Assembly (NCBI GenBank): GCA_951406725.2
Contig: OX597817.1
Span: forward strand, 90,148,001-90,212,000
Direction of reading: 5' to 3'
From: Octopus vulgaris
Taxonomy: Eukaryota
DNA length: 64,000 nt
The notes beneath the pieces were generated by a model. It saw only the letters and a list, made by a program, of their open reading frames with translations, ran no database searches and was not told the DNA's origin. Position numbers and translations under genes: made by a program. Below are positions 3,443-61,922 of this stretch, in pieces (position 1 is the stretch's first letter; each line of letters starts with the position of its first letter).

Positions 3443-4920
3443 CTTGTTTATCATAGTCCTCCAGGCAATAACAGAGGAATTTAAGTAGGCTGCCCCTGAT
3501 GACCTTGTTCTTATAGCTGAATCCTTACCAGAACTGGAGAAGAAATTTCAGGTGTGGAAGCAAGTTCTAGAATTGAAGGGCTTTGTAGTTAACCTAGCAA
3601 AAACCTTATAGTTAACCTAGCAAAACCCAAAGTCTTAGTAAGTAGGAAGGCAGACAAATCATAAATCCCTTCAGGTTGATGGCCCTGCTCGATCTGTAGA
3701 AAAGGCGTAGATAGAAACTTCATAGGATGTACCCAATGCATGCTATGGACACATAAGAAGTGCAGTAATATCAGAGGAAGATTAACTGAGAAAATAGTTT
3801 TTGTGTGTGGAAGGTACACAGGTACAATAAACACTATAAATTATTTACATCATTTACATTTGACGGATACTTGTCCTCATCTTGGCTGATATACCCTCCA
3901 GCCTTCATCAGGCATCTTGGGGAAATTTCGAACTTGGGTTCTCATTCCTAAGGTATTTTTCGATGAAATTTTCCCAAGACACATGATGAAGGCTGGAGGG
4001 TATATCAGCTGAAACGTGTTAACAACAAACAAGATGAGAACAAATATCCATCAAATGTAAATAATGTAAATAATGTATATAATTCCTCATCTCTTAAATA
4101 TAGAACTGAAACACTAGAAATTTACAGAAAATAGACTCTATCGACTGCCAATGGAGTAAGCTAGAGGTAGTTGATAGCTTCCGTTATTTATGTGACCAAG
4201 TCAGTAGCAGAGGTTGATGCTCTGAGAGCATAGCTGTGAGAATAAGAATAGGCAGGGCAAAGTTCACAGAGCTCCTACCTCTGTTGGCAACAAAGGGCCT
4301 CTCTCTCAGAGTCAAAGGCAGAGTGTAAGATGCCTGTACATGAACAGCTATGCTACACAGCAGTGAAACATGGGCTGTGACCACTGAAGACATGCGTAGG
4401 CTTCACTGGATATGTAATGTCAGTGTGCATGTATGGCAAAGTGTAAACATCTTGAAAGAAAAGTTGGATATAAGGGGCATCAGGTGTGGTGTGCAAGAGA
4501 GACAACTGCACTGGTATGGTCATGTGATATATATGGATGAAGACAGCCGTGTAAAGAAGTGCCGATCCCTAACTGTGGAAGGAACCTGTGGTAAAGGTAG
4601 ACCCAGGAAGACATGGGATGAGTTCATGAAGCATAATCTTCAAATGTTGGGCCTCACAGAGGCAATAACTATTGAACGAGACCTTTGGCGGAATGCCATG
4701 CTTGAGAAGACCCATCATACTGAATGAAATTATAGTTGTGGCTGATGCTGGTGTCATGTAACAAGCACTTGTTCTGGTGGCACATAAAAAGCACCATTTG
4801 AGCGTTGGGTCTCATGGAAGTGATGAGAAATGGCTGAGACCCTTGGTGATATGCTGTGCTTGAGAAGACCTGTCAAGCCAAGATAAATTGTAGTTGTGGC
4901 CGATACCAATGTCATGCAGG
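3443..4920 (+). mobile_element. 5'-truncated decayed RTE-type LINE, interrupted at 3837-4108
   Basis: Collinear with the 52800-57140 element (DDL motif, LHSSETWAV, LHWYGHV, GRPRKTW), with stops and indels. Confidence 0.88.
3837..4108 (+). mobile_element. Palindromic insertion with degenerate hammerhead motif (Penelope-like pLTR fragment)
   Basis: Arms 3840-3929 and 3965-4074, unique tail 4075-4108, 8-bp target duplication aaacacta (3829-3836 / 4109-4116). Hammerhead-like gacac-aTGATGA-a-ggctg..cagct-GAAA-c-gtgtt at 3978-4020. Confidence 0.75.
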
Positions 4921-4924
4921 TCTA

Positions 4925-5800
4925 AACATAGAGAGTGCCATCCACTCTTGTCATTTTCACCATTTCCCCACTCCTTTCATTAAATTCAATTGAGGACAGC
5001 ACCGCCTCCAACACACTCACCCCGCCATTCCAAGTGTAACTTGAAAAAGCTAATGAGGGCTCTATCAAAGAGGAAAGTCTCATCCACTGCAAATCTGCTT
5101 TTGCTATAGCTACCAGACAATGGAAAACTGCCTTTCCTGTCTGGTTAAAGGAGAGCAATGGATTAACCATCACTAGCAAGAGCTCTATTCATTTCACATG
5201 TGACATCAGCTGTTCAACATAATTCCACAAGTCAGCACTACCCAGACACTGAACAAGTGGTGCATCTCAGACAAGCCAGTGTGACAGCATTTCTATGTCT
5301 GTAGGGTTTATTTCAAACTGGTAGCACCCATCACCAGAACTGTCAGGCCAAGGACTTCTGGAAATTATTCATTGTAAAAAATCCTTCTGAACAGACAATC
5401 CAATTAAATGTCTCTCTGAGAATGTTGTCATTCTTGCTTAGGACTAATCCTCTATAGATTACTTGAGTTGAACAACCACTGATTCCATTGCCCAATTAGT
5501 TGAGGACACTGTGAGCAGTTAACCAGTCTCTCAGTCCAATATCTTACAATGCCACCCAACTATATAGAGTTGCCTCTCCATGTGCCCAGCTACAAGCCCA
5601 CTGACTTGTCCATGCTGATCTTGGCTGCTGCCACTGCCTTGTATTCCTTTAGAATACTTCCAATTGTCTCCATATTGGTGGCATCTAACGCTGTGATGGT
5701 GACATCATCCATGTTTGCTGACATAGTACTCTTGGGTCCTAATTCAAAAGGGATGCTCCTCAACTGCAGTTTCTGTAGTGGTGCCTCAAGAGCCAGTATG
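4925..5800 (-). mobile_element. Decayed Tx1/L1-clade LINE RT fragment
   Basis: SANMDDVTI...LKEYKAVAAAKISMDKSVGL*LGTW resembles the Tx1/L1 pattern AYADDVT...Y..ASGAKIN.DKS.GL.LG.W. Confidence 0.65.
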
Positions 5801-59245: not shown

Positions 59246-59378
59246 TATCTATCTATCTATCTATCTATCTATCTATCTATCTATCTATCTATCTATCTAT
59301 CTATCTATCTATCTATCTATCTATCTATCTATCTATCTATCTATCTATCTATCTATCTATCTATCTATCTATCTATCT
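59246..59378. repeat. (CTAT)n microsatellite
   Basis: Direct reading. Confidence 0.97.
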
Positions 59379-61689
59379 ATATATATATATATATATATAT
59401 ACACACACACACACACATATGAATAACTGAGTTTCAGATTGGCTTTGAGCCAAGAAGAGTATGACTGATACCCTCTTCCCAATGAAACAACTGCAAGAGA
59501 ATATAAAGTAAGTCATCATAGCTATATATAAAAGTATATATATATATATAAGTAAACCATATATAAAAGTAAGCTTAATATAAAAGTAAGCCACCATACC
59601 TAGCATTAATTAACCTTGATAAAGCCTTTTCTAGCATACACACACACACATACACACTCTCTCTCTCTCTCCCTCTCTCTCTCTATCTTGCTCTCTCTCC
59701 CTTCTCTCTCTTCTCTCACATTATTATCTCTCTCATAATCTTGTTCTACTTTCTCTTCTTTCACATCCTGACTTTCCTCCTGCCATCACTTTGTTCTGTG
59801 TTCATCCATTTGGACACAACTTTGAATGAATGGAAACAAAGAGGAATAGAGAGGACCCTTCAGTCTTGCAGAAGACAAAGCAACCACACTAGTGCTGATG
59901 CCACAACAAAATACACCTCATGCAATAAAGAGATGCAGATAATAAGGGTTCAGAGGAACCTTTACTCTTGATGAGGACATGACAAACTCTTTAGTGCTGG
60001 TACCAAGATTAAATGCACCTAGTAGATATTGCAAAGTGATTGGCATTTGGAAGGGCATTCAACCCCAGGAAGCATGCTAAAAGGGAATTTAGAATGTGAT
60101 GTGGTTTCCATCTCAAATAAGAAGCTTTGGTAATCAATCCAACCTTTGCCAGCATACAAAGGAACATGGTTATATGTCTTTTATCTTTTACTTGTTTCAC
60201 TCATTCTATCAGTTTCTTTTGCCAAACTGTTAAGTTACAGGGCATAAATACACCAACACTGGTGGGAGACAAACACAGACACAAAGACACACATACATAG
60301 ATGTACATACTTATTATATATATATATATATATATATATAAATGGGCTTCTTTCAATTTCTGTCTACCAAATCCACCCACAAAGCTTTGGTTGACCTGAA
60401 GCTATAGTAGAAGACATTTGCCCAAGGTGCTATGCATGAATCCTCCTCCTCATCATCATCGTTTAACGTCCGTTTTCCATGCTAGCATGGGTTGGATGGT
60501 TCAACCGGAATCTGGGAAACCAGAAGGCTACACCAGGCCCCAACTGATCTGGCAGTGTTTCTACAACTGGATGCCCTTCCTAACACCGACCATTCCATGA
60601 GTGTAGTGGGTGGTTTTTACGTGCCAGAGGAGGCTGGCAGCAGCCATGATCAATTGGTTCTCTTAACGTGCCACCGGCACAGATGCCAGTCAAGGTGGCA
60701 CTGGCATCAGCCACATTTGGATGGTGCTTTTTACGTGTCACCGGCACAGGTATCACACTATAGTTTCCATTTGATTTTTTTTTTGATGTTGATGTACTTG
60801 ACTCAATAGGTGTCCTTAAGCACAGCAGGTCGTCCTACAATCCAAGGTAAGCACAGCAGGCCATCCTGCGATCCAAGGTACTATATATATATACATATAT
60901 ATATTTATATTACAGGCATAGCTGTATGATTAAAAAGTTTGTTTCTCAACCACATTTTTTTTCTGGATCAATCCCACAAGGTTCTACCTTGGGCAAGTGT
61001 TTTCTCTTATAACTTCAAAGCTCCAAGCTAACCAAAACCTAGTGAATGGATATGGTAGGAAGAAATTAAGAGAAGCCCACCATATATGTGCATGTGTGTG
61101 TATGTGCGAGTGTGTGTTTATGTCACCTAGTTGTGACATCCCATGATAATTGCAAACGACTGTCATTGTCATATAAGCAAAGTCATTCATTTCCAATATT
61201 TTGTGAAACATGTTTGGCCTTGAGGAAATATTACCTTGCCTGGAAACAGGTGAGGGTTTGCAACAGGAAACACATTCTGGCATAGAAAATTTGCTCCAAT
61301 AAACTTCATCTAGCATACGCAAGCATTGAGAAAGTGGATATTAAAGCAATAATAATGCTGATGATGCTGATGATGTGCCTGCACACATTTGTGTGTATGC
61401 ATGTGCACGCATGTGTGCGTGTGTGTGTATGAGTGTGTGCTTTTATCTCCTTGTTTTGATACCATGTTCTAATTGTAAACAACTGTTATCGTTTATTTGC
61501 CATCTTTCATGAAAACTGTTCAGTGATTATGCTATTTTATGTTTGAAGGACAAGTTAAAATATTACTTTGCTTCAGAATAGATGAGGTTTAGCAACAGGA
61601 AGAGCATCCAGCAATAGTAAATCTGTCTCAATGAATTTTGTTCAACCCATGCATGAATGGAAAAATAGATGATGTTATTATTATTATTG

Positions 61690-61922
61690 GCAAAAATAGA
61701 AGAGTGCCATTGTTATCAAGTGAATGATATTTCGACATCTTGTGTGTCTTCCACAGGTTCAAAAATTAAACTTGGTTAATATATATAGGACTGAGGTAAC
61801 TCCCCCAGAAGATATAGAAGCAAAAATAGAAGAGTGCCATTGTTATCATTCACTTGATAACAATGGCACTCTTCTATTTTTGCTTCTATATCTTCTTGAG
61901 GAGTTACCTCAGTCTTATATAT
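61690..61922. mobile_element. Compound inverted-repeat insertion with degenerate minimal hammerhead motif (Penelope-like pLTR fragments)
   Basis: Hairpin 61781-61848 / 61855-61922. 61690-61728 is the reverse complement of 61844-61883. Minus strand tgaac-CTGtgGA-a-gaca..tgtc-GAAA-ta-TC-attca at 61721-61761. Flanked by (TTA)n. Confidence 0.65.

Follow-up and report, generated by a model that had tools for sequence, protein, structure and literature searches.

Three palindromic insertions in an Octopus vulgaris locus as probable 5′-truncated ends of Penelope-like elements

Penelope-like elements (PLEs) leave a characteristic footprint when they insert, against which we compare three palindromes, E1 (3837-4108), E2 (23241-23853) and E3 (61690-61922), carried by a stretch of 64,000 nucleotides (nt) of Octopus vulgaris DNA (contig OX597817.1, positions 90,148,001 to 90,212,000), hereafter the window. 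In the sections of the literature on which this comparison draws, rotifer Penelopes are described with a tail of 31 base pairs (bp), target-site duplications of 8-10 bp, head-to-head palindromes and a TATATATA box, self-priming being proposed as another route to such palindromes (Arkhipova 2013, PMC3846280). An inverted 5′-truncated copy, a 30-40 bp tail, a hammerhead ribozyme in the pseudo-long terminal repeat (pLTR) and a bias towards microsatellites were reported by Craig 2021 (PMC8557442). In the work of Frangieh 2024 (PMC11167929), the tail lies between two internal start sites of reverse transcription, and AT-rich DNA is cleaved and extended on both strands, hammerhead cleavage being unnecessary in vitro. 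The O. vulgaris repeat paper counts 31 recently active Penelope-like families in this species.

We read E1, E2 and E3 as the 5′-truncated 3′ ends of three distantly related PLE families, made palindromic during insertion, and give this reading a probability of roughly 0.8. An earlier note on this DNA had described them as ribozyme-bearing retro-palindromes mobilised by Penelope-like reverse transcriptases (RTs). The Penelope link stands as the best reading; the architecture itself is the published PLE footprint and no new class, to which the locus adds uncharacterised octopus families. The elements behave as PLE insertions and, judged by the published descriptor of minimal hammerhead ribozymes (min-HHRs), the copies are not members of that class.

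The three palindromes were confirmed by arm alignment and self-BLAST. Alignment of the arms gave 84 matches, 10 mismatches and 24 gap columns for E1, including one 20-nt deletion in the left arm (self-BLAST E = 4e-31), 257 matches, 2 mismatches and 3 gap columns for E2 (E = 0), and 65 matches, 3 mismatches and 6 gap columns for E3 (E = 1e-49). Compared with insertions of endonuclease-bearing (EN+) PLEs, as described in the available text of PMC3846280 and PMC8557442, the inverted 5′-truncated copy joined head to head is found in all three, with strand-switch joints in other E2 copies; the one-sided 30-40 bp tail has its counterpart in the 31 nt of E1 and the two 3′ ends of the E2 family; and the short variable duplication or microsatellite target is represented by 8 bp in E1, (TA)n in E2 and (TAT)n in E3. 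Heterogeneous 5′ truncation was seen in the E2 family alone. A partial tandem, present in E3, and a TATATA box in the terminal repeat complete the likeness, whereas the octopus stubs differ by carrying no open reading frame (ORF), by extensions of 70 and 91 nt, and by a signature common to three dissimilar families.

E1 is inserted in the remnant of a long interspersed nuclear element (LINE). Elsewhere in the window, at ~55.8 kb and ~63.7 kb, two further copies of this LINE have the site once. These single-copy sites provide the empty site of E1, hence the 8-bp duplication, and hence the limit of the 31-nt tail. The loop of E1 is the upstream sequence of its inverted arm, and a reading from that arm, MRTQVRNFPK, matches the start of P0001 (UniRef A0A0L8FV75), an O. 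bimaculoides ‘uncharacterized protein’ of 51 residues that is 76% identical to the E1 reading. From its sequence, P0001 is evidently a chance translation of the E1 repeat family, and it probably does not correspond to a real gene. The upstream sequence and the tail end of this relative are the same as in E1, with one added Cys codon. The insertion of E2 into (TA)n and of E3 into (TAT)n makes a target duplication unreadable for both.

In E3, the segment 61690-61780 reaches past the palindrome as a 91-nt one-sided extension. The inner end of the inverted arm falls inside a microhomology of 5 nt (61844-61848), in which the predicted cleavage point also lies, as if, in this single case, one complementary DNA (cDNA) had reached the 5′ end of the cut RNA. 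E3 is compatible both with an ordinary partial tandem whose inverted arm carries a 39-nt tail and with the copy of a non-autonomous short unit. A phmmer search with its 32-residue frame returned two matches, both unrelated tandem-repeat proteins, so that there is no sign of E3 being a gene fragment, and among 4 and 22 candidates none had open frames of E1 or E3 within a longer protein.

The family of E2, the only one of the three followed in this way, was analysed in public contigs from four runs aligned to 23470-23856 (624, 557, 248 and 12 contigs aligned), and it was present in all four. Words of the E2 region were recorded under five organism codes; no run among the listed holders was on record as RNA, which has no bearing on expression. 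Summed depth in run X1 was 475-861 at the fold-back centre, 16,132 at 23561-23573, 74,163 at 23795-23807 and 1,126 beyond 23834; the profile was alike in X2 (656-788 at the centre, rising to 54,164) and X5 (29-35, rising to 3,286). Depth at the centre is about 1% of that at the 3′ peak. Set beside single long contigs, whose depth is 15-59, these values suggest a family of hundreds to low thousands of copies, depth not being equal to copy number. The copies continue upstream of 23504 and their 5′ ends, among the loose ends listed, are ragged; the loop of E2 (23504-23521) is the native upstream sequence of the family, two runs having 9 and 6 contigs whose loose ends precede 23504. At the 3′ side two ends were found, one at 23782-23789 in (TA)n and the other past 23834 at the A-rich end. 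Four of the nine listed joints change strand, none of them at the centre of this copy. As the E2 centre is seldom common to copies, the palindrome was likely made at each insertion, and its low depth, together with copies that run upstream, indicates that the palindrome is not the mobile unit. The idea implied by the retro-palindromes of the earlier note, that the palindrome is what moves, is thereby set aside for E2.

The boundary between arm and tail carries a signature. TATATA(A/T)TTCCTCAT occurs at 4076(+) and 23783(+), with 0 matches in 12 shuffled windows, which bears out the one-sided tail that had been noted for the first two elements; its restriction to these two was too narrow, E3 also extending from TATATA. 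In local alignments of the whole elements, 75, 35 and 302 of 500 shuffles did as well or better, in agreement with the claimed lack of extended similarity, but to call the elements unrelated was too strong. Across the arm end, 28 of 42 letters are identical between E1 and E2, the best match in both directions among 128,008 positions besides the place of the query itself, in a comparison window picked after the match was seen. Outside TATATA they agree at 22 of 36 letters, and none of the 448 remaining comparable TATATA sites exceeds 17. The TA-rich box is followed in all three elements by GAAC at +28 from the TATATA start, an arrangement found at 4 of the 250 TATATA run starts in the window, three of which are these elements. 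E3 agrees with E1 and E2 at 18 and 19 of 33 letters, in a register that can shift by two, and in each element the short arm terminates at the box or within 2 nt of it.

The letters of TTCCTCAT are not fixed: C23793T accounts for 35-62% of depth in three DNA-type runs, and P0001 reads V-H-N where the window has V-Y-N, this His for Tyr inside the box meaning that one TATATA letter is altered in the E1 relative. A third match to the pattern, at 44465(-), was discarded as a (TA)n run leading into another repeat with no palindrome beside it. A conserved hairpin between TTCCTCAT and an upstream ATGAG-like strand is no more than a weak lead, since E1 folds in this way (z = -1.57, 16 of 200 shuffles as good) and E2 does not (z = +1.05, 177 of 200). 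If the boundary served in priming, this would accord with what was found in vitro for a PLE of Anolis (PMC11167929). Short tail motifs gave no match at the 3′ end of Naiad_Obim or Naiad_Ovul in the Craig 2021 supplement, a comparison limited to short motifs and to 9 of 15 TTCCTCAT places listed, and pattern scans of viral and metagenome contigs returned 0 matches. No description of these octopus families or of the common signature was found in the literature searched, although repeat libraries or a published supplement may contain them.

The hammerhead motifs were tested with the min-HHR descriptor published by Cervera and de la Pena (2014 supplement), which specifies a stem I of 3-7 bp, CUGANGA, stem II and GAAANNUH. 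In E1, the left arm keeps CTGATGA, an unpaired A and a stem II closed by G-C, while its 20-nt deletion takes GAAA and the cleavage site; the right arm keeps the unpaired A, the stem II with its G-C closing pair and GAAA, the first core base is now A, and 3 nt are missing near the cleavage site, so that the space is too small for a cleavage triplet. A TGT codon inserted for the Cys of P0001 makes the second core valid and lets a stem I of 5 pairs form with either arm; a TGC codon does so with the left arm only. With this codon the E1 family would likely conform to the descriptor, and the extra Cys codon of this one peptide suggests that the family likely once had an intact minimal hammerhead. 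In E3, the motif consists of the core CTGTGGA (A6 replaced by T), an unpaired A, a stem II of 4 bp with a G-C closing pair, GAAA, palindromic TA, TC, and a 4-bp stem I past one mismatch, which is the first stem I pair; two changes separate it from the descriptor, to which it conforms when one core and one stem I mismatch are allowed (1 match versus 0.15 in shuffles). The E1 family and E3 have in common with PLE min-HHRs, as far as the text of PMC4209133 goes, CUGANGA, an unpaired base before stem II, a G-C closing pair, GAAA, palindromic CG or UA, and a short stem I; they differ in that the window copies fail the descriptor and, for E2, in a stem I offset from the core.

In E2 the core CTGATGA is exact, three of the 7 pairs of stem II are wobbles, and GAAA is present; the pattern gave 3 matches, two of them the mirror copies of E2, versus 0.25 in shuffles. 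Among 40 of 45 variant rows listed from its contigs there was no core variant, and A23622 is G in about 99% of depth with pairing kept. This motif is best called hammerhead-core-like. CTGTGATG in the E2 tail was rejected as a further core, having no A6 and no GAAA following, and no variant is listed there. Directly after the E2 GAAA stands a hairpin GGTTCC...GGAACC (23638-23680, +), a possible protein-binding structure; where other copies show loose ends, its closing arm is retained and its interior altered. In Rfam no hammerhead family appeared among 150 of 159 matches listed at E ≤ 5, and microRNA matches were dismissed as hairpin artefacts below gathering scores. The ribozymes are decayed in the E1, E2 and E3 copies.

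From the observed arms, tails, E1 duplication, E2 family ends and decayed motifs we infer a PLE enzyme, two priming events and a role for the common signature. The endonuclease would nick both strands of an AT-rich target, and reverse transcription would then begin at two internal RNA sites, one being the TA-rich box and the other lying nearer the 3′ end. The two cDNAs would stop early and be joined head to head, giving unequal arms and a one-sided tail, with either a short target duplication or merging into a microsatellite as the outcome. The hammerhead would be carried in the terminal repeat and later decay; in a folded transcript it would be trapped in double-stranded RNA (dsRNA). The closest experimental counterpart is the Anolis Poseidon element PAc, which, in the available text of PMC11167929, also has two 3′ ends, AT-rich targets and a hammerhead upstream of the RT start sites. 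Unlike PAc, whose ORF starts in stem II, E1, E2 and E3 showed no credible ORF start, and the AC-rich priming stem-loop of PAc has a weak counterpart in the octopus elements.

Several observations weigh against the assignment to truncated PLE ends. First, no match to the GIY-YIG endonuclease was obtained among the 150 longest of 245 frames, no PLE RT frame is linked to E1, E2 or E3, and the two RT matches both lie inside the LINE at 53-56 kb; stubs truncated at the 5′ end would be expected to have no PLE ORF. Secondly, the earlier note had assigned a hammerhead-type motif to each element, and motif parts are indeed present in all of them, but none of the three passes the min-HHR descriptor; in the E2 family stem I is unpaired beside the core, and A23637G makes up 13-30% of depth in three DNA-type runs. 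Thirdly, the 70-nt and 91-nt extensions of E2 and E3 exceed the published 30-40 nt, E3 having the alternative of a 39-nt tail. Fourthly, the E2 tail is deeper (60,000-74,000 in X1) than the adjoining arm (29,000-54,000), where an optional tail predicts otherwise. This excess may reflect related families with a common tail or alignment loss; one X11 contig, aligned over 23763-23834 only and with 84 unaligned letters upstream, fits related families with a common 3′ end. Lastly, the evidence on E3 comes from one copy, that on the E1 family from one relative known as a peptide, and the contig detail for E2 from a listing of 24 of the 222 loose ends together with 32 of the 1,466 pieces.

Dedicated non-autonomous, non-coding units, either retrozyme-like or resembling short interspersed nuclear elements (SINEs), may have used the PLE enzyme instead. 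This explanation differs from truncated PLEs only in the parent, and we regard it as possible but unlikely for the three together. It suits E3 best, as a unit of 130 nt arranged head to tail, which the hammerhead would cleave and which might then be circularised; the 130-nt period and the start of the inverted arm inside the microhomology at the predicted cleavage point favour it. Retrozymes have been published as non-autonomous PLE derivatives (PMC7229834; bioRxiv 10.64898/2026.07.22.740005), and in the available text of these sources the features that E3 has in common with non-LTR retrozymes are a type I hammerhead and a short unit, non-coding and arranged head to tail. It differs from them by the absence of an array, by its inverted structure and by a single decayed, incomplete minimal hammerhead with A6 changed; E3 has ~1.3 units, whereas retrozymes are recognised by tandem repeats in which two or more consecutive units each carry a complete hammerhead. 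Published monomers are also longer than the E3 period, at ~220-400 nt, with canonical type I hammerheads (PMC7229834), and a partial tandem is an ordinary PLE structure as well. For E2, the upstream continuation is AT-rich and depth rises steeply over 23535-23573, in favour of such units, but upstream the depth falls gradually, without a single 5′ end.

Elements of the hAT type, too, typically have 8-bp duplications. Fold-back DNA transposons, namely miniature inverted-repeat transposable elements (MITEs), hAT-like in the case of E1, could accordingly be proposed, with the hammerhead letters arising by chance, and loose hammerhead patterns are indeed common in the window (11 matches to the loosest pattern versus 5.0 in shuffles). 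We consider this highly improbable. The symmetric terminal inverted repeats of DNA transposons, which the earlier note had itself raised as the contrary case, were not found: the ends are asymmetric in all three elements, and the ragged 5′ ends and seldom shared centre of the E2 family largely refute a MITE there. The E1 relative, moreover, restores the published GAAA-CG-UU form. The window offers its own example of a MITE look, a fourth palindrome at 37308-37596 that is older (~75% arm identity), has symmetric ends TA-CAG...CTG-TA and no tail, and contains one CTGAAGA for which no GAAA partner was found; we take it to resemble a Tc1/mariner-type MITE. Three of the four self-contained palindromes in the 64 kb are of the E1/E2/E3 type. 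Slightly less credible still is a fixed hairpin RNA retroposed whole, for which an opposite-strand joint (23573/23755) in two runs with different organism codes can be cited, but an old common insertion also explains that joint, strand-switch joints occur at several places, the E2 centre has about 1% of the peak depth, and a perfect hairpin would be expected to pair off its own hammerhead core.

Features of the three elements and of the host region are given below, with positions counted from the first letter of the window.

Features of E1, E2 and E3 and of the surrounding window
Feature	Position	Strand	Basis or remark
E1 target-site duplication, left copy, 8 bp	3829-3836	+	host LINE empty sites; identical to right copy
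E1 inverted tail-less arm and loop	3837-3957	-	arm alignment
E1 arm bearing the tail	3958-4077	+	arm alignment
E1 minimal-hammerhead remnant	3978-4022	+	pattern and descriptor scans; extra Cys codon in O. bimaculoides relative
E1 one-sided tail, 31 nt, containing TTCCTCAT and GAAC	4078-4108	+	duplication boundary; P0001 match ends there
E1 target-site duplication, right copy	4109-4116	+	as left copy
E2 inverted arm without tail; T run and (TA)n at its end	23241-23500	-	self-comparison
E2 tail-bearing arm	23504-23782	+	includes loop 23504-23521; contig loose ends
E2 hammerhead-core-like motif	23600-23650	+	mirror copy at 23414(-); pattern scans
E2 one-sided extension, ~70 nt: TATATA, TTCCTCAT, GAAC, short hairpin, A-rich end, then (TA)n	23783-23853	+	
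E3 long copy, head-to-tail partial tandem	61690-61848	-	130-nt period; 61690 recurs at 61820
E3 minimal hammerhead motif	61722-61761	-	pattern and descriptor scans
E3 inverted arm	61849-61922	+	outer end TATATA merging into (TAT)n
cNMP (cyclic nucleotide monophosphate)-binding exon	2562-2843	-	Pfam PF00027, E 1.4e-4
Epac/RAPGEF4-like exon	44638-44760	-	phmmer E 2e-7 versus Epac2
Fragmented LINE	53188-56621	+	endonuclease, RT and PHD-finger matches

The window has a G+C content of 37% and is rich in microsatellites. Two Epac/RAPGEF4-like exons stand ~42 kb apart (44638-44760 and 2562-2843, both on the minus strand); since E1 and E2 are positioned between them, both are intronic, and E3, upstream of the internal Epac exon, is probably intronic likewise. 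Pieces related to the LINE were found at 3627-4748(+) and 62959-63770(-). The LINE copies at 55.8 kb and 63 kb, which have 86% likeness, lie at a distance of 6.5 kb in inverted orientation and are another possible dsRNA former, and short interspersed repeats occur as close inverted pairs, 72-84% alike, at 21941-22831, 8985-9816 and 60343-61079, as more local dsRNA candidates. A 380-nt direct duplication (55120-55498 and 57641-58023, 98% identity) on either side of a long (TA)n-rich tract may be a recent event or an assembly artefact. Mariner/DDE transposase remnants were recognized at 857-1111(-) and 14159-14455(+) from the Pfam families HTH_48 and DDE_3.

On the Epac strand the folding energies are -142 kcal/mol for E1, -446 for E2 and -121 for E3, such that intronic transcripts would form long dsRNA. 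In the available text of Porath 2017 (PMC5625713), octopus has an exceptionally high share of loci with near-perfect dsRNA, and hyper-editing is strongest there; heavy editing of Penelope is described for lizard, octopus being outside the repeat-class analysis. Young repeats are the main editing targets across animals according to the consulted sections of Zhang 2023. The self-folding substrates of ADAR described in PMC5625713, frog Harbinger palindromes and lizard Penelope, resemble the octopus hairpins in being long near-perfect hairpins, single insertions and located in transcribed regions; they differ in that editing was seen there, whereas the octopus hairpins are candidates for it. The E2 contigs contained 8 A>G places in the run guessed to be RNA, whose 12 contigs are too few for an editing test, versus 7-9 in the DNA-type runs.

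We tentatively propose, as a doubtful but specific extension, that octopus harbours many divergent PLE-mobilised families, some of them non-autonomous, 130-nt and retrozyme-like, which have one 3′ signature, with GAAC at +28 from a TA-rich box where the first priming would occur, and whose fold-backs, made at each insertion, are a main source of dsRNA and hyper-editing. Shared as it is by three dissimilar families, the signature is a candidate cis-acting signal for internal priming in PLEs, of which an in vitro map exists for one element. Intronic PLE fold-backs, for their part, are a countable candidate source of the near-perfect dsRNA and hyper-editing of octopus.

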